Of a stretch of DNA of 20,000 nt, positions 1-20,000 are shown piece by piece. This stretch comes from an uncultured virus (IMG/VR IMGVR_UViG_3300042276_000285) (taxonomy: Duplodnaviria; Heunggongvirae; Uroviricota; Caudoviricetes): the IMG/VR virus record IMGVR_UViG_3300042276_000285. The stretch is one strand, 5' to 3'. A program made the position numbers and the translations under genes. Numbering within the stretch: position 1 is the stretch's first letter; the number at the start of each line of letters is the position of its first letter. Under the pieces are notes generated by a model that made no database searches, was not told where the DNA came from, and saw nothing but the letters and a program-made list of their open reading frames with translations.

Positions 1-1686
1 CTGCCCGACACAGACTACGTGGTGGCAAGCGTGTATGCGCAATTGGACTGGCAGCAGGCACGACAAAGCCTGTGGTACGACAGCCTTGCTGTGGACGGGT
101 TTAGAGTGCTGGACGTCGTGGACAGTGCCTATGTACACTACATAGCCATACGGGATTTGGATTCTCTGTTGCTGGCACTGAACGGAACAGGACTGGTGTA
201 CGCAAGCGGAGCAGACACCACATTAGGTTTTTTGTCCAACTCTGTTGACGACAGTACAATTACTGTTTCCAACAACGAATTGCACGTACTGGACACAGCT
301 CTGTATCACAACAACCTTAGAAATCTAAATTGGGCAGACGCAGGGCACACGATGGACGACACGCTGGAAATGAACGGATACAACGTGGATCAAGTGGGTG
401 TAGTTGGTATGGACACATCGTATACTGTTTTGGGGTCAGAACCAATAGGTAGCATCTATTGGGACAGCGACAACGGAACGTACAGCTACGTGTTTGAAAA
501 CGGCGTGATAGGGCAGAACTTCTTCGAGGAATATTTTAGGGTAAAAAACGAAACAGGAGCGCAAATAGACAACGGAACACCCGTTATGTATTCCGGCTCG
601 GTAGGAGCCAGTGGAAACCCGAAAGTAGTGAAGGCTATTGCCGACGGAACAAGAGCACCGTGGACGTTTTTGGGTGTAGCCACAGAAGACATTGCCAACG
701 GTGGTTGGGGTTTGGTTTCGTGGAGGGGAATAGTACGCGGAATAGACACAGACGGAAGCCCATACGGTGAAACGTGGAGTGCGGGCGATACTATATACGT
801 ATCTTCTGCGACAGCAGGATATCTGACAAACGTTCAGCCCAGCGCACCAAACTACACTATATGGGTGGCTATTGTTTCTTCCGCAGGAAACAACGGGTCG
901 TTGCTCATCAGACCAAGCTGGGACAGCAAAATAACTGATGCCGCCGACGTGAACGGAACCCCACTGACAGAAAGCGGACAGTTCCTCGTGTGGAACAACG
1001 ACAGTTCTTATTTCGATCCAACGTGGAACGTAGATACCTTTAAGGTATTAGACGCATTGTACGGAGAGATGTACAAATACGAAAATACAACGGCCGCTGT
1101 CATTGGAACACAAGATACCTATCATGCGGTTGTGAATTTTACACAAGGAAGCCAAAACGGAGTTACCTACGTGGCAGGGGCAGAAGGAAGTTTCACGGCA
1201 GTGGCAGATTACAGCGGAACAGTAGCCGGAACAGTGTTGATAACAGACGTAGGACACGGGTTGTCCACAGGCGACATACTTACAATTCACAATACAACAA
1301 ACTACAACGGCGTGTTTGAGATAACAGTAGTAGACCCGGACTCCTATTACATTACCGACACATACGTTGCCACAGAAACGGGGGATTGGGCAGCAGGTGA
1401 CTATCTGAGATGTGATGTTGCGGGTGTGTACATGGCTACATTCCACGCCACTGCATTTGCAGCAGCAGCCAACACGCAGTTTAAGTTTGAGTTGTTCAAA
1501 AACACAACAGAGTTGAACAACATAGCTGCGTCGCGTATGTTTTCATCTACCGACTACGGGTCTATCAGCGGACATGGAGTTGTTACCCTTGCTGTGGGGG
1601 ATCGCGTATGGTTTGCAGTGATGAACAGAACAAGTTCAACAGATATAACAGTGCGTCACGCAAATGTGACAATAAACAGACTTTGA
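1..1686 (+). CDS. Tail fibre/virion structural protein (5'-truncated) with C-terminal C1q/TNF-like beta-sandwich
   Basis: Frame is open from base 1. Gly/Thr/Asp-rich. Contains the module VKNETGAQIDNGTPVMYSG...FLGVATEDIANGGWGLV...GDTIYVS, which recurs in phage fibre proteins. C-terminal GVYMATFH...GVVTLAVGDRVWFAV resembles C1q/BclA-C. Confidence 0.7.
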   Translation: MPDTDYVVASVYAQLDWQQARQSLWYDSLAVDGFRVLDVVDSAYVHYIAIRDLDSLLLALNGTGLVYASGADTTLGFLSNSVDDSTITVSNNELHVLDTALYHNNLRNLNWADAGHTMDDTLEMNGYNVDQVGVVGMDTSYTVLGSEPIGSIYWDSDNGTYSYVFENGVIGQNFFEEYFRVKNETGAQIDNGTPVMYSGSVGASGNPKVVKAIADGTRAPWTFLGVATEDIANGGWGLVSWRGIVRGIDTDGSPYGETWSAGDTIYVSSATAGYLTNVQPSAPNYTIWVAIVSSAGNNGSLLIRPSWDSKITDAADVNGTPLTESGQFLVWNNDSSYFDPTWNVDTFKVLDALYGEMYKYENTTAAVIGTQDTYHAVVNFTQGSQNGVTYVAGAEGSFTAVADYSGTVAGTVLITDVGHGLSTGDILTIHNTTNYNGVFEITVVDPDSYYITDTYVATETGDWAAGDYLRCDVAGVYMATFHATAFAAAANTQFKFELFKNTTELNNIAASRMFSSTDYGSISGHGVVTLAVGDRVWFAVMNRTSSTDITVRHANVTINRL

Positions 1687-1721
1687 TGTAAAATAACGAT
1701 ATTTGTAAAAAAAAATAAACA

Positions 1722-2111
1722 ATGGCAATTTACAGAGACACAAACACCAGATATGTGGGCACGATAGACATCGAAACGGCCACAATTGTTCCTCAGTTTA
1801 CACTGCGCACAGGAGCCTTGGACGACGGGTACTTCAGAACAGACAAAGGAGAGTCTTTTTCTTTTCAGTTGTTTTCCGACGACATCAGCGCAAGTCTTAC
1901 GTGGACGCTGCAATACAGCCTAGACGGAACGAATTGGGCAACAGCAAAGGACAGCTCTGACACGGACATTACGGGAACGCTTGTGGCAGACACAGCCACT
2001 ATTCAGTCCGTGTATGCTCCGAGGTATGTCTATTTCAGAGTTTCTCTGGCAGTGACGACAGAGACCGGTAACGTGAGCTATATTGTCAGACCCGGAAACA
2101 GTGAAAAGTAA
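1722..2111 (+). CDS. Hypothetical virion protein (small beta-sandwich)
   Basis: 129-aa ORF after an A-rich leader; beta-rich, with WTLQYSLDGTNW...YVYFRVSL pattern; late-module context. Confidence 0.6.
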   Translation: MAIYRDTNTRYVGTIDIETATIVPQFTLRTGALDDGYFRTDKGESFSFQLFSDDISASLTWTLQYSLDGTNWATAKDSSDTDITGTLVADTATIQSVYAPRYVYFRVSLAVTTETGNVSYIVRPGNSEK

Positions 2112-2296
2112 TGAGAGTAATCGGTAAGTTTGTAGGAAGGGACATTGGCAAGACAGTGGGAAAGGCTCGCCTTGGGTCAAAGTTGAACTCTTATGCGATT
2201 ACAACAGACATCGAAGATGGAGTTATTCAGGCAATTTTAACAGATAGTGAAGACGGAACACCAGAATTAATCTTAATTGATACGGAGGACAGATAA
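2111..2296 (+). CDS. Hypothetical small protein
   Basis: 61 aa; TAATG coupling with the upstream gene and 2 nt from the next ATG. Confidence 0.6.
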   Translation: MRVIGKFVGRDIGKTVGKARLGSKLNSYAITTDIEDGVIQAILTDSEDGTPELILIDTEDR

Positions 2297-2298
2297 TC

Positions 2299-4068
2299 AT
2301 GAGTAAAGAAGCAAAAAATTTAGGGGCATATACAAACACGTTAGAATCACTGCGTAGGCTATTAGGTAAAAACAAAGAATTTTTCCCCAAGAATTTAATT
2401 AATACCGTTTCTCCAGATCACATAACTGGATATTTTTACGATATTTATGGCAGTTTGACTTTAAATTCGAAGTATAATATAACTGAATATATAACAGTTG
2501 ACGGATTAGTTGGTAAGGTTCTTTTGTCTTTTTATATTGGGGAAAAAAATTCAATAGTACAACATCATCATTTTAGGTTTGTTACATTTTTTGACAACAA
2601 TAAAAATTTTATTGCCTCAACATCTATTACAGATTATCGCAATTATTATCTTGTTGAAGATGTAGCCGATGCTGTTTATATGAGGATTTCGTACGAAAAC
2701 ACCAGCCTGAGCTCTGAGACTGAAAGTGTAATCATATGCAGCGAAGAAGATTTTTATAACTCCTTAATATCAAGAATTGTTCTCGAAAATAAAAATTCAT
2801 TGCAATTAGCAAGTACGGTGTTATCAGTTAATAGTAATTTATATAGAAATGATGATGGCTTGGTGGCCTCTGAATATTACAGTTCTTGTGAATTTGTTCC
2901 ACAACGAGACAAGTTGTATTACATACACTTAAATACAGGAGGTGGTTTGCCGTCTGACTTGAACTTTATGACTGTTTTGGATTCTAATGATAATGTTATT
3001 TATCGTAATAAATCATCGCTTTCATATAAAGGATGGGTTTTTCCATCAAACGCAGTTAAAGTGGTGTTGTCGTATCGTAATTTATGTGATCCATTGCTGT
3101 TGACTGAAGGTAAAAATTCAAATGAAAACTATAATTTAAGTGGAGATCTCACTTCTGGAGTTACGTATTATATTGGAGAAAATAATTATATAAAAAAGAA
3201 TGTAATATTGACATATTTTATTCAATTTACAACTTTTTCAAACATCCGAATTGGGAGGGGTGTTGGCGAATATTGGTATTCATATGTTGATGTTAATTCA
3301 ACGCAGATAATAGCAACAACTAAGAACGGGGTTGTGTCCACAGAATCTCACGGACTGACTATCTTGGATTATTTAGTTATTTCATTAGAATCAGACGATT
3401 ATAATCAGACCATTGTAAAGATTAGAACAAACGGGGGGACGTTTACAAGTGCCGCATTTGATTTTTACGGCGACGGAAGACCGTATATAATTCCATACAT
3501 GGATTGTCAATTATACAAGGCTTGTGAAATTTTCAAAGATATTAAAAAGACGGTTAGATACTACGGAGATAGTTATTCTGGAACAAATAACGTAGAGCGA
3601 TGGCCGTATCAAGCGGCATTATTGGGTGCTGATTTTTTAGTCAATGGTTTAACTGGCGGAACTTCTGTTGAATTATATGAAATGGTGGTAAGAGACATGT
3701 GGTTTGGCAAACCAAACATAGTTATTTGGGGACTTGGTATGAATGATGGTTCGGACGCAGACGAAAATACCCCTAACGCAACATGGAAGTATATCGTTGA
3801 TAGTCTTATTCAATTATCATATTTGCTTGATTTTGAATTGATTTTATGTACAATTCCAAATGTTCCATCTAGATATCATGGTGGGAAGAACAAGTATATT
3901 AGAGAGTTAGGATTTAGATATATTGATTTTGATTCTATTGTTGACAATGGCATTGACTACACGTGGAAATCAGGAATGCTAAGTGCAGATAACATACATC
4001 CGTCAAAGATTGGCGCAATTGCTTTAGCTCATGCTGCCATAGCATCTGTTTCTGAACTCTTTGTTTAG
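2299..4068 (+). CDS. SGNH/GDSL hydrolase-domain protein (probable virion-associated polysaccharide O-acetyl esterase)
   Basis: C-terminal SGNH blocks: YYGDSYS (I), NGLTGGTS (II), GLGMND (III), DNIHPS (V). Repeated N-terminal beta modules (FVTFFDNNKNFI / MTVLDSNDNVI). Confidence 0.8.
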   Translation: MSKEAKNLGAYTNTLESLRRLLGKNKEFFPKNLINTVSPDHITGYFYDIYGSLTLNSKYNITEYITVDGLVGKVLLSFYIGEKNSIVQHHHFRFVTFFDNNKNFIASTSITDYRNYYLVEDVADAVYMRISYENTSLSSETESVIICSEEDFYNSLISRIVLENKNSLQLASTVLSVNSNLYRNDDGLVASEYYSSCEFVPQRDKLYYIHLNTGGGLPSDLNFMTVLDSNDNVIYRNKSSLSYKGWVFPSNAVKVVLSYRNLCDPLLLTEGKNSNENYNLSGDLTSGVTYYIGENNYIKKNVILTYFIQFTTFSNIRIGRGVGEYWYSYVDVNSTQIIATTKNGVVSTESHGLTILDYLVISLESDDYNQTIVKIRTNGGTFTSAAFDFYGDGRPYIIPYMDCQLYKACEIFKDIKKTVRYYGDSYSGTNNVERWPYQAALLGADFLVNGLTGGTSVELYEMVVRDMWFGKPNIVIWGLGMNDGSDADENTPNATWKYIVDSLIQLSYLLDFELILCTIPNVPSRYHGGKNKYIRELGFRYIDFDSIVDNGIDYTWKSGMLSADNIHPSKIGAIALAHAAIASVSELFV

Positions 4069-10397: not shown

Positions 10398-10627
10398 TTC
10401 CTAAAGTCTTTTTCTGTCAATTCCATATACGTAAATCCATATTCTTCTGCCAGTGCCATTGCTGTTCTGCACGCCTTTTTGAAGCTATCTATCCCGTGTA
10501 GTTCTACAGACACCTTTCTCAAATCCTGTGTCATAGGGTAGCGAAACACGCCGTTGGAGCTAAACCATCGTATGTATTCACCGCCTGTCACGTCCTGTAC
10601 TTTAAATCCGTATGTCTTCATATCCAC
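10394..10627 (-). CDS. Hypothetical protein
   Basis: 77-aa ORF overlapping both neighbours in the operon. Confidence 0.6.
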   Translation of the reverse strand: MDMKTYGFKVQDVTGGEYIRWFSSNGVFRYPMTQDLRKVSVELHGIDSFKKACRTAMALAEEYGFTYMELTEKDFRK

Positions 10628-10893
10628 CTTCCTTCTTTGATTATCAATTCGTCTATTCCTTCTATCTCCACGCCGTTGAACTCAACACGCAAGTCACCCC
10701 ACCTGTATATGAAGTTTGTTGCCGGAGGAGTCCACATGTCCCCTGCTATGTACTGCCACTCCGAAAACACAGTCCCGTTCACAATAGCCACGCCGTCGTC
10801 GAAGACAAACTCCTCGTCTTTGTAGAATTGTACGTCGTCGTTGTATCCTTCCAGAAGCAATTCTGACAGGGTTTTTAAGCTGAACTTTGCCAT
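10618..10893 (-). CDS. Hypothetical protein
   Basis: 91-aa acidic ORF in operon orientation. Confidence 0.6.
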   Translation of the reverse strand: MAKFSLKTLSELLLEGYNDDVQFYKDEEFVFDDGVAIVNGTVFSEWQYIAGDMWTPPATNFIYRWGDLRVEFNGVEIEGIDELIIKEGRWI

Positions 10894-16074: not shown

Positions 16075-16864
16075 CGAATATTCTTTTAATGTTTATATCC
16101 TTAATAGAAAACTTATCAGGCATTGACTCTTTTCTTGGTTCAATGCTACCTCGTCTCAACAGCTCTACATACGCAGTTTCTTTTACAGCACAAAACTTTT
16201 CCCACAAATAGTCACGCTCTTTGTCTTTCACTTCAGTAAACGTGTATTTTTTCTTTGTTGTGTTGCCAAGTATTATCACGCCGGCTTTGTCAGCACCGAC
16301 GACCCTGCGAATGGATTCCACCTGCATCTTGTGTTCTTCTGACACCACCTTTGACGTCTTCCAATCCAACACCCACCTGTCCTTGTAGTCGTCTGCCAAA
16401 ATTCTTGCCTCCAAATCCAGAGTAAACCCAAAGTCCTCGCCCGTGGACATACGCTCAGACGCAAGTATCTCCGGTTGCTGGTCTGACATGAAGTTCATAA
16501 ACGCCAGCAGGCACACTTTTATTTTATACGCCTCCTTTTCGTTTGGGAAAGCAGCATCTATATCTGCGTGTTGTATGTCTACGTTGGACTTAATCATTCT
16601 GTCAATACTGTCGTGAACAAAGCTGCCTATTTCAGCAGAACGCGCAAGTATGTCGTCTGCATACATTCCATTTTGCTGCCTCCACTTTGACAACCCAACT
16701 GGCTCTGGTGCGCCAACAGACGTAATAAAATGATATGCCGGGAAAAAGCTGTTGCCAGTACGAGGGTTTATCTTTGACGGATCGTGGTAAAACCTCGTAT
16801 CGAATACGCTATCCGTTATTCTCTCTATCATATAAATATTTTTTAAAATTTTCGTGTGACTCAT
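16061..16864 (-). CDS. PD-(D/E)XK exonuclease (phage recombination nuclease)
   Basis: GSFVH, ASE, GFTLDL, LDWKTS and Q motif order; start may be the Met at 16831. Confidence 0.8.
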   Translation of the reverse strand: MSHTKILKNIYMIERITDSVFDTRFYHDPSKINPRTGNSFFPAYHFITSVGAPEPVGLSKWRQQNGMYADDILARSAEIGSFVHDSIDRMIKSNVDIQHADIDAAFPNEKEAYKIKVCLLAFMNFMSDQQPEILASERMSTGEDFGFTLDLEARILADDYKDRWVLDWKTSKVVSEEHKMQVESIRRVVGADKAGVIILGNTTKKKYTFTEVKDKERDYLWEKFCAVKETAYVELLRRGSIEPRKESMPDKFSIKDINIKRIFGDSN

Positions 16865-18593: not shown

Positions 18594-19367
18594 TTAAACA
18601 GCAACATCCAAAGGATTATACATTTTATTCATCCTTTCAGCAGGAATGTGATAGTAGTGTAATGTAGAGTTAAGACAATTGTGTCTTGCCATGTCTTTTG
18701 CAGCAAAAACGTTTTCATGCTCTATCAGATTGGTGAGATAAGTTCTTCTAAAATCGTGTGAAGAGTATTTTTTGTTTGAAACACGCGAAATTATATTACA
18801 AACACTCTCGGCAGAGTATTTAATTGAATTTTGTCCGTTGAACAAATACTCTATTGGCCTCCATTCTCTTAGATACTTTAGCATATATTTTTTTGTTGAA
18901 TTAATAAAAATACGATTATTAACCCAATCGATATCAGTTAATCTTATATTTATCATTTCAGACCTTCTTATTCCTGTAGAATATAATAAAATGAGTATAA
19001 GTTTATGTTTTGAATTTTTACATTTCTTCCCCATTGATACAAATTCGTCCCAACTAATGATGTCATAAAACCTGCGTTTAGTTTTAACCGGATGGAACCA
19101 ACTCATCTTTTGGGGTTGTTTTAATAAGTCATCATACAATATTTTAAGCGCAGACCCATTAACATTGTAATAACTATCTGAAAATTCATTGCGAATAAAT
19201 GCCATGTATCCCATTAAATCCTGTTTAGTTATCCTGTAAATACGACTGTATCTACTACAAAATATTTTAACACAAGACCAGTAAGAATTAATTGTCTGTT
19301 CTGAATTGATATTTGGTTTATTTCTCAAAACAGTGACATAGTTTTGTTTCAGTTCTGTCAAATCCAT
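18594..19367 (-). CDS. Tyrosine recombinase (N-terminal SAM-like domain plus catalytic domain)
   Basis: SEQTINSY N-domain; LLYSTGIRRSE (R), STK (K), HDFRR (HxxR), ARH (H) and TLHYYH (Y). Markedly AT-rich. Confidence 0.9.
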   Translation of the reverse strand: MDLTELKQNYVTVLRNKPNINSEQTINSYWSCVKIFCSRYSRIYRITKQDLMGYMAFIRNEFSDSYYNVNGSALKILYDDLLKQPQKMSWFHPVKTKRRFYDIISWDEFVSMGKKCKNSKHKLILILLYSTGIRRSEMINIRLTDIDWVNNRIFINSTKKYMLKYLREWRPIEYLFNGQNSIKYSAESVCNIISRVSNKKYSSHDFRRTYLTNLIEHENVFAAKDMARHNCLNSTLHYYHIPAERMNKMYNPLDVAV

Positions 19368-19385
19368 TTTTATCTGATTGAAAAT

Positions 19386-19431
19386 TAATTGGTTAAACTA
19401 ATTGGTTTTAATAATAGTTATGCCCAATTAA
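19386..19431 (+). other. attI-like recombination site
   Basis: Direct repeat TAATTGGTT (19386-19394, 19399-19407) followed by core G|TTATGCCCAATTAA (19417-19431), just upstream of the recombinase start. Confidence 0.55.
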
Positions 19432-19787
19432 GCGAAAGCAAGTTTAACAAGCCTCATTTCTTGGCTTTGGTAAGTTTCTCCACCTTCAATTTTGGCTATC
19501 ATTTCTGCACAATATCCACCATCAGTCCATCTACTATTATCTTCTTCAAAGTGTACCTCTGTATAATCTTTGTAGGTGTATTCTCCGCCTTTGTACCCAT
19601 AGAAAGTACCCGTGTAGGCTTTTTTTATATTCGCCAAAATTTCTTCTCTTGTCATTGGCTGTTCAAGTATTTCAAAAGCTACTTCATCATAGCTACCACG
19701 CCAAGAAAAAGGTTCGCTAATTCCATAATCAAAAGTTTTACCAGCTTCGGCTTGTTCAATCTGTTGTTTAAATTCTTTTAGTTCCAT
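19428..19787 (-). CDS. Phage hypothetical protein (cassette 1 ORF)
   Basis: PFSWRGSYDEVAFE...TFYGYKGGEY, a pattern I recognise from small phage proteins; flanked by inverted core sites. Confidence 0.75.
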   Translation of the reverse strand: MELKEFKQQIEQAEAGKTFDYGISEPFSWRGSYDEVAFEILEQPMTREEILANIKKAYTGTFYGYKGGEYTYKDYTEVHFEEDNSRWTDGGYCAEMIAKIEGGETYQSQEMRLVKLAFA

Positions 19788-19812
19788 TTTATTAAATTTT
19801 GTTGTTTATAAA

Positions 19813-19883
19813 TTAACTGGGCATAACATCGTATATCCCCCATATTCGTACCTCATACGGTGCATATACACACCGTTAGCGGT
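19813..19883. repeat. attC-like imperfect palindrome
   Basis: GGGCATAAC-ATC-GTATAT-CCC-CCATAT-loop-ATACGG-TGC-ATATAC-ACACC-GTTAGCGG; AAC...GTT core ends, about 61 bp core to core. Confidence 0.7.
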
Positions 19884-20000
19884 AATGCGAACCAAACACA
19901 TCATCCACCGCTATGTTATAATATTCCTTTTCCTTTTCAATCCCAATAAATCTTCTGTTCAAATCCTTAGCACCTAAACAAGTTGTCCCACTACCCATTG
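19876..20000 (-). CDS. N4/N6 DNA methyltransferase, C-terminal fragment (cassette 2 ORF; not in ORF track)
   Basis: Translates MGSGTTCLGAKDLNRRFIGIEKEKEYYNIAVDDVFGSHYR*, the SAM-binding motif I region of beta-class MTases. The TAA stop lies inside CGCTAAC. Confidence 0.85.
   Translation of the reverse strand, partial: MGSGTTCLGAKDLNRRFIGIEKEKEYYNIAVDDVFGSHYR

Follow-up and report, generated by a model that had tools for sequence, protein, structure and literature searches.

The hairpin described here, which we call site A, occupies an 88-nt spacer between two minus-strand genes near one end of a 20,000-nucleotide stretch of DNA from an uncultured virus, referred to below as the window. The gene upstream of the spacer encodes a DNA methyltransferase and runs past the window; it is seen in full, with 262 aa, in L001. 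On the other side follow a short ORF and the gene of a small tyrosine recombinase. Read along the minus strand, the region comprises the following features:

19876..20000, minus strand: 3' end of the DNA methyltransferase gene, the upstream cassette, which continues beyond the window (Pfam N6_N4_Mtase, 5.2e-10)
19873..19880, minus strand: 5' box of site A, the 8-mer GCTAACGG (read 19880->19873), crossover point of cassette rearrangements
19824..19878, minus strand: site A hairpin, from a constrained fold; matches of the models R1 and R2 at 19819-19885
19428..19787, minus strand: 119-aa ORF, function unassigned, the coding part of the cassette headed by site A (phrog_12889, 3.9e-6)
19417..19422, minus strand: terminal CATAAC box closing the cassette, with the crossover directly after AAC (junction comparison)
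19325..19416, minus strand: hairpin-less docking site, made up of the recombinase leader and the first 14 codons (part of a 98-bp repeat)
18594..19367, minus strand: small Xer-like tyrosine recombinase, 257 aa (Pfam Phage_integrase, 8.5e-14)

The nearest record, a phage of 59.5 kb (G001), is identical to the window over the site A region, and its terminase is a distant relative of the terminases of Cellulophaga, Flavobacterium and Tenacibaculum phages. All genome contigs that carry relatives of the recombinase belong to Bacteroidota. A blastn search of the site A region against cultured phages and a tblastn search with a structural protein returned no match. At the opposite end of the window, only 133 bp of the left 4 kb match the otherwise identical G001; this part (1-4063) encodes a C1q-domain protein, an F5/8-type-C-like ORF and a 589-aa protein, and looks like a swapped tail-fibre or host-range module.

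Site A and its hairpin family

On the minus strand, the base of site A is a helix of TAACG (19878->19874) and TGTTA (19828->19824), above which follow an asymmetric internal loop, a GTATAT/ATATAC stem, a bubble and a CCGTAT/ATATGG stem that includes a G.T wobble. The methyltransferase gene ends, with its TAA stop codon (19876-19878), inside the 5' box. A preliminary description of this DNA, made from the letters of the sequence, had read the spacer as an attC-like hairpin, and the pairings it named are indeed present: GTATAT (19831-36) is complementary to ATATAC (19864-69), CCATAT (19840-45) and ATACGG (19855-60) meet in an A/C mismatch on the plus strand and a G.T wobble on the minus strand, the triplets AAC (19825-27) and GTT (19874-76) adjoin spacers of 3 nt vs 5 nt, and a CCC/TGC bubble interrupts the stem. 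The minus strand, said to be G-rich, holds 20 G vs 12 C among 71 nt. A repeat search of site A returned arms of 15 nt with 80% complementarity.

The proposed fold did not hold up when site A was considered alone. Folding of both strands gave z-scores of -0.60 (plus) and -1.88 (minus) with DNA parameters and -1.40 (minus) with RNA parameters, and by itself the hairpin is no better than chance (not significant). The unconstrained minimum-energy fold is another small hairpin, and the structure first proposed is obtained only with the base helix enforced (-14.6 vs -21.1 kcal/mol, RNA parameters). What makes site A convincing is its homology to a family of hairpins, not its own fold.

This family became visible through the 5' box, which is the most over-represented 8-mer in G001 (12 copies vs 0.79 expected). 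All copies in this genome lie on the gene strand, at or just past stop codons, and in many other phages, reached via the recombinase, long hairpins begin with this box as well. A covariance model built from 14 hairpins (A1, or R1) yielded 219 matches at E<=1 in 785 kb; in recombinase-oriented loci only 5 matches were antisense, each overlapping a stronger sense match, and structural or replication blocks contained none. Site A scored 49.8 bits with R1. Because site A itself sat in the R1 seed, we built a second model, R2, without hairpins from its own phage, seeded with 40 hairpins that all came from other phages. When applied to both strands of the 20-kb window with filters off, R2 recovered site A as its sole match (28.7 bits, E 0.0053). 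By this homology, site A is a genuine though weak representative of a hairpin that is widespread in Bacteroidota phages, where it lies between swappable accessory genes, and the stem and "cores" of the preliminary description correspond exactly to the conserved base of the family.

Aligning 129 distinct sense-strand hairpins revealed 96.4% paired cells vs 69.9% in shuffles and 663 double-change cells vs 210 in shuffles, in an alignment that was fitted to the model, which favours pairing. The proposed stem also passed a covariation check across homologous sites, its score of 0.659 vs 0.163 being reached by none of 500 shuffles, and slid controls scored 0.04-0.13. In the consensus, T..TAACG-G-TT leads into a stem that contains a fixed TAT; an A-rich conserved loop follows, then the return stem and TGTTA-T. 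Pairing of TAACG with TGTTA occurs in 125 of the 129 members, as well as in site A, and two near-invariant pairs are G.U (G.T in DNA), in 127/129 and 115/129 hairpins. The internal loop is conserved in its asymmetry, with ~3 nt on the 5' side vs 0-2 nt on the 3' side, and the length varies from 48 to 188 nt around a median of 92. A conserved single-base bulge was sought in the 129-member consensus and none was found, the unpaired columns of the stem being rare inserts. Site A, which measures 55-57 nt and has an internal loop of 3 vs 1, ranks as a weak member of a short subclass (48-60 nt, present in other phages) because of its bubble and short length. The idea that the minus, gene-sense strand is the one favoured for folding was borne out across the family: with DNA parameters, sense was more stable than antisense in 121 of 129 hairpins, by a mean of -2.8 kcal/mol. 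A duplex operator of the "stoperator" type was set aside because of this strand asymmetry.

Two further ideas about the box were tried and rejected. Its TAA does not serve as a general stop codon, being one in only 29/129 hairpins. Intragenic invertons or a shufflon were likewise dismissed, as in-silico inversion produced early stops in most of 11 pairs; box copies within genes and at gene ends form pair-specific inverted repeats, the inner copies being the 3' arms of hairpins that enclose the start of the next gene. Unrelated small proteins of G001 share an L-H-x-V-S-like stretch (genes 21855-22268, 23251-23544, 24000-24392, 24485-24727, 52642-53013 and 53104-53541), which is encoded by a hairpin 3' arm lying before the gene or reaching into it. 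One gene reads this DNA in another frame, and the constraint is therefore on DNA or RNA, not on protein. One hairpin (L033 808-906) is chimeric, combining the 5' arm of one subtype with the loop and 3' arm of a second, so that its upper stem is unpaired; crossovers therefore also happen within hairpins.

Arrays, recombinase and rearrangement joints

In G001 the hairpins fill two arrays, at ~17.4-28.5 kb (minus strand) and 53-59 kb (plus strand). Within them, the segments 17442-22863 and 56626-58255 (L003-L005) carry genes for at least six DNA methyltransferases, which belong to several classes, and one for a Lar-like restriction-alleviation protein. Site A stands at the recombinase-proximal end of its array.

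Among NCBIfam models, the recombinase matched XerA_Arch best (104.9 bits, cutoff 220). The integron integrase model TIGR02249 reached 67 bits (cutoff 265) and aligned only to residues 22-180, the N-terminal half, and PRK15417 gave 29 bits against 435. Judged by these profile scores, the enzyme is Xer-like and not an integron integrase. Its length is 257 aa in the window and 271 aa in G001 and G002, with a 42-bp in-frame indel at window ~18891-18898 (G001 16423-16456).

Across related loci, the hairpins are tied to the recombinase gene by position. Of 38 viral loci, 32 have hairpins upstream of the gene and on its strand, and among the six that lack a match, five have less than 1.3 kb of upstream DNA; in Bacteroidota genomes, hairpins precede the gene in this way in 6/9 loci. 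Furthermore, a hairpin-less docking motif, TAAC plus TA..ATATAT, precedes the recombinase ATG by 45-71 nt in 28 of 36 loci, compared to an expectation of 15.6% (p 2e-16), and remains linked to the gene though the recombinases are only 25-33% identical. In the window, this docking site forms part of a 98-bp inverted repeat that includes the CATAAC box (window 19325-19422, equal to G001 59388-59485; G002 copies at 10542-10637 and 49101-49195). The second docking copy ends the other array of G001 and G002, where a short peptide is followed by a stop and then by structural genes. The 98-bp repeat holds two direct copies of a 9-nt word.

Hairpins also occur in a phage for which no such gene was detected: G003, 95% complete according to CheckV, gave 9 hairpin matches, and neither tblastn nor a Pfam search of its 18 ORFs >=170 aa detected a tyrosine recombinase. 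Its homologue of the 119-aa gene is preceded by a family hairpin, and the notion that the G003 spacer is unrelated sequence was rejected on account of this hairpin. Among cultured phages, Polaribacter Freya and Cellulophaga Ingeline were without a hairpin match, and Leef_1 gave two weak ones. The ten isolates Freya_1 to Freya_10 of one Polaribacter phage range in genome length from 43,978 to 48,920 bp, and their small integrase lies 107 to 4,204 bp from the start of the record, an offset that may reflect a varying number of small genes upstream; Freya_10 contains no R1 hairpin. Cellulophaga phage Ingeline_1 (L056) has two integrases, the large one beside a divergent HTH regulator and the small one placed like the recombinase of the window, where the early/replication block ends.

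Comparison of G001 with G002, which is ~99% identical, showed that the array differences are cassette-sized and that their junctions fall at an ..AAC box in 7/7 cases. Cassette rearrangements between these genomes cross over exactly at the 5' box of site A. Four upstream contexts, ending in CATAAC, CATAAC, GCTAAC and CACAAC, are joined to one docking sequence that begins with TATTATT. A clean insert of 2,529 bp in G002 begins directly after the CATAAC that closes the 119-aa cassette, ends with GCTAAC and sits in the hairpin-less docking site of the recombinase leader, and a 7-kb deletion in G002 extends between the site A box and a second box. The 119-aa ORF and its hairpin stand behind a different upstream gene in G002, a 260-nt unit with TAAC on both sides is located in the left array of G001 and in the right array of G002, and the right-arm divergence of the two genomes starts directly after TAACGG. 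Among ~12 breakpoints listed for the central hairpin-less region, none carried an AAC box. The hairpin-free stretch of G001 at 28.9-38.4 kb differs from G002 by short replaced segments, with edges near gene starts and no box.

The identity shared at the joints amounts to 4-17 nt, which is less than the word sizes of assemblers and too short for homologous exchange of the ordinary kind. The sequences of G001 and G002 were assembled from metagenomes, where the 98-bp repeat could mislink the sequence downstream of a docking copy; despite such possible mislinking, the junction sequences themselves must be present in the reads. Logan contigs of other runs contain a box-to-box joint (7969->10450) with 9 shared letters, and contigs X6 and X7, from two other runs, lose their match at the site A box. 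When all related loci were considered, homology ended within 10 nt of a box in 11 of 75 cases vs 1.85% expected (p 1.4e-7). In a gene-boundary control, 7 ends were found at 9 box stops vs 13 ends at 33 box-less stops, an excess of only about two-fold.

Comparison with integron attC sites

The available part of one article on integron attC sites describes a folded bottom strand with extrahelical bases, an unpaired central spacer, a variable terminal structure and three conserved nucleotides, a length of 57-141 bp, and a stability difference between bottom and top strand of 2.1-2.4 kcal/mol, which is similar to that of the present family (PMC5371416). Like attC sites, the phage hairpins are imperfect, ~50-140 nt long, have an AAC...GTT base and variable, covarying stems, contain an asymmetric unpaired spacer, and fold better as one strand, by ~2-3 kcal/mol; site A, with 55-57 nt, and the family, with its median of 92, agree with the attC length range. 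Like integrons, the arrays consist of small, mostly promoter-less-looking ORFs with methyltransferase cargo, show crossover at the AAC/GTT triplet, and include a hairpin-less partner site beside the recombinase gene.

In contrast to integrons, the recombinase is Xer-like and falls far under the integron-integrase cutoffs, and transcription of the array runs towards the recombinase gene, whose leader contains the docking site. Whereas attC sites rely on extrahelical bases, no such bases are conserved here and two conserved G.T wobbles stand in their stead; it is the coding (top) strand that folds, which puts the hairpin at the head of the cassette and not at its end; loops are conserved; and a start codon may fall inside the hairpin. 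The attC-like label of the preliminary description thus survives for the AAC/GTT ends, the asymmetric loop and the covarying stems, but not for membership in the integron attC/IntI system (TIGR02249, 67 bits vs 265). The attC rule that it cites, a folded bottom strand selected by unpaired bases, is not supported for this family: extrahelical bases are not conserved, and the coding strand is the one that folds.

The suggestion of a new site class needs a similar amendment: the class is real and its geometry distinct, but it is not wholly new, as one member has been published as P12002L_attC1 (PMC9892861). According to the available part of that work, Qi et al. (2023) described integrase-less attC clusters (CALINs) in virulent phages, among them Polaribacter phage P12002L, with methyltransferase cassettes (PMC9892861). 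In P12002L, R1 found six hairpins at E<0.01 that adjoin the methyltransferases and without exception lie on the gene strand, and the annotation of this phage lists no tyrosine recombinase. One of our matches (L066 30003-30063, R1 32.2 bits) is the oligonucleotide P12002L_attC1 in the supplement of Qi et al. 2023 (PMC9892861), which HattCI had called as attC and which, in the portion of the study available, was the sole site among six phage sites not recombined by IntI1 (PMC9892861). P12002L attC2, which is located just past the last gene, was recombined only as the strand that is gene-sense in the phage (PMC9892861). The available part of the article contains no description of the hairpin family, the Xer-like enzyme or the docking site (PMC9892861). 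A literature search for the hairpin family, its motif and hairpin repeats in Bacteroidetes phages, with incomplete journal coverage, likewise returned no description.

A Xer-type tyrosine recombinase that acts on a one-strand phage hairpin is known from the CTX phage, whose attP is used by XerCD/dif. This case involves a single integration site, a single-stranded filamentous phage and host enzymes. In contrast, the phages studied here are tailed dsDNA phages with dozens of sites in each genome, an enzyme of phage origin and a traffic of cassettes.

A candidate cassette recombination system and its alternatives

Taking the positional tie to the recombinase, the strand bias and the joints on AAC boxes together, we favour, with modest confidence, the reading that site A is an attC-like site at which cassettes recombine in an integron-like system of the phage; the linked Xer-type recombinase would serve this system and recognise the site as folded coding strand. 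Three other explanations were weighed against this proposal.

The best-surviving of these, which we nevertheless consider unlikely, regards the hairpins as intercistronic RNA or regulatory elements of a polycistronic early mRNA that process, stabilise or attenuate the transcript or control the start of translation. In that case TAAC..TATAT would serve as an expression signal in front of each gene, that of the recombinase included, and shuffling would be a PeSL-like by-product of the repeats. RNase III hairpins of this kind are known from phage T7, where long, irregular hairpins with an asymmetric internal loop lie between the cistrons of the early polycistronic transcript; the T7 sites are not known as rearrangement joints or to be tied to a recombinase. 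An RNA role would agree with the nearly exclusive sense orientation of the R1 matches, with the two near-invariant G.U pairs and the conserved loop sequence, and with the RNA-parameter folds, in which sense beats antisense in 119/129 hairpins by a mean of 5.9 kcal/mol. It would also suit the position of the hairpins between genes: in 87/129 cases the stop codon of an upstream ORF is found -3..+15 nt from TAACG, at the 5' base, and the next start lies inside the hairpin in 39/129 (in the loop in 30/129) or 0-60 nt past it in 67/129, of which 20 fall within 0-20 nt and 47 within 21-60 nt. The presence of hairpins in G003, where no recombinase was detected, and the chimeric hairpin, which shows crossover by homology, point in the same direction. 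The joints, however, are unlike homology-driven exchange, as they share only 4-9 nt and fall at the AAC box in 7/7 cases, including the hairpin-less docking site, and the docking motif stays linked to the recombinase gene across highly diverged recombinases. Moreover, the hairpins lack a U-run behind them, 19300-20000 contains no terminator-like site, and no Rfam family was matched; a scan of L013 and L014, which contain strong family members, at E<=1 returned only two chance snoRNA matches.

The closest regulatory analogue are the PeSL cassettes of T4-type phages (Arbiol et al. 2010, PMC2839356). In the available part of that article, PeSLs are repeated intergenic stem-loops that contain G-T pairs, likewise start at the stop codon of the gene before them and shuffle ORFans; they are crowded in variable regions full of small ORFs, where they mark the joints at which close relatives differ by modular shuffling (PMC2839356). 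The hairpin family shares the stem-loop at the upstream stop, the variable regions and the shuffling joints. PeSLs are, however, described there as composites of a sigma-70 promoter and a terminator that undergo homologous exchange over tens of bases (PMC2839356), whereas in the present case no such promoter was found, the joints lie at one fixed box and share 4-9 nt, and a dedicated recombinase gene and docking site are linked to the arrays. A promoter scan of 19788-19880 detected no site, and a sigma-70 scan of 19300-20000 gave 3 sites vs 3.1 expected, the consensus used being that of sigma-70 and not the Bacteroidota type.

We regard it as improbable that the recombinase acts on a double-stranded TAAC core in the manner of Xer/dif, the inverted repeat having another purpose or providing two binding arms in a cruciform-free duplex. 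The Xer-like enzyme without integron-specific parts and the use of a hairpin-less docking site as crossover point would fit such a mode of action, but the box flanks vary from site to site and only the folded form unites the base helix, TAT and the wobbles, and the strand asymmetry, with G.T pairs in sense and A/C mismatches on the other strand, is unexpected for a duplex site. Still less probable is that site A is a decayed relic or chance hairpin without present function, its box kept by descent: weak fold statistics, the bubble and mismatches of the upper stem, a family fold that is not the minimum-energy one and the low R2 score would suit a relic, against which stand the exact 8-mer box, the correct base helix and expected stop-start position, the short subclass in other phages, the actual joint at site A in G002 and in contigs of two other runs, and the family hairpin before the homologous gene of G003.

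Returning to cassette recombination, the mechanism that we propose is as follows. Each cassette would open just past an ..AAC box, usually with a TAACG/TGTTA hairpin, and close at the next ..AAC box. The last cassette of the array would consist of the hairpin and the 119-aa ORF (window 19877->19417), with site A as its boundary, and transcription of the array would run towards the Xer-like recombinase, whose leader carries the docking site. The linked recombinase, as the probable acting enzyme, would cut and exchange strands at or beside the AAC of the box. It may read a folded, single-stranded coding strand by its shape, that is by the base helix, the asymmetric loop, TAT and the two G.T wobbles, and recognise the docking site as duplex DNA. 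By these steps the system could excise or delete cassettes, insert them at the docking site and carry them from one array to the other, and site A may still be active. The cargo is largely anti-restriction, comprising DNA methyltransferases and a Lar-like protein. In its full form, this amounts to a mirror-image integron, a self-contained system of gene capture in tailed Bacteroidota phages, with a minimal Xer recombinase that lacks the integron-specific domain, a folded coding strand, docking in the recombinase's own leader and one-gene trade of anti-restriction or accessory genes between phages, a picture that we put forward tentatively and as slightly less likely than not; within it, site A would head the cassette that this phage acquired in its present place most recently. 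Recombination and an RNA or regulatory role are not mutually exclusive, and both can hold.

The system is integron-like in its working and stands outside the integrons by its enzyme, its folded strand and its lack of conserved extrahelical bases. Current attC finders already catch some sites of the family and file them as parts of bacterial integrons; the covariance model finds family sites reliably and can be used to map such arrays. If the proposed mechanism is true, a large group of environmental and gut-type phages would exchange single genes via a dedicated site-specific system and not by chance recombination, which would explain the fast spread of methyltransferases and anti-restriction genes among unrelated Bacteroidota phages. 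It would also mean that folded DNA can be recombined without the special domain of the integron integrase, which would bear on the origin of integrons from Xer enzymes.
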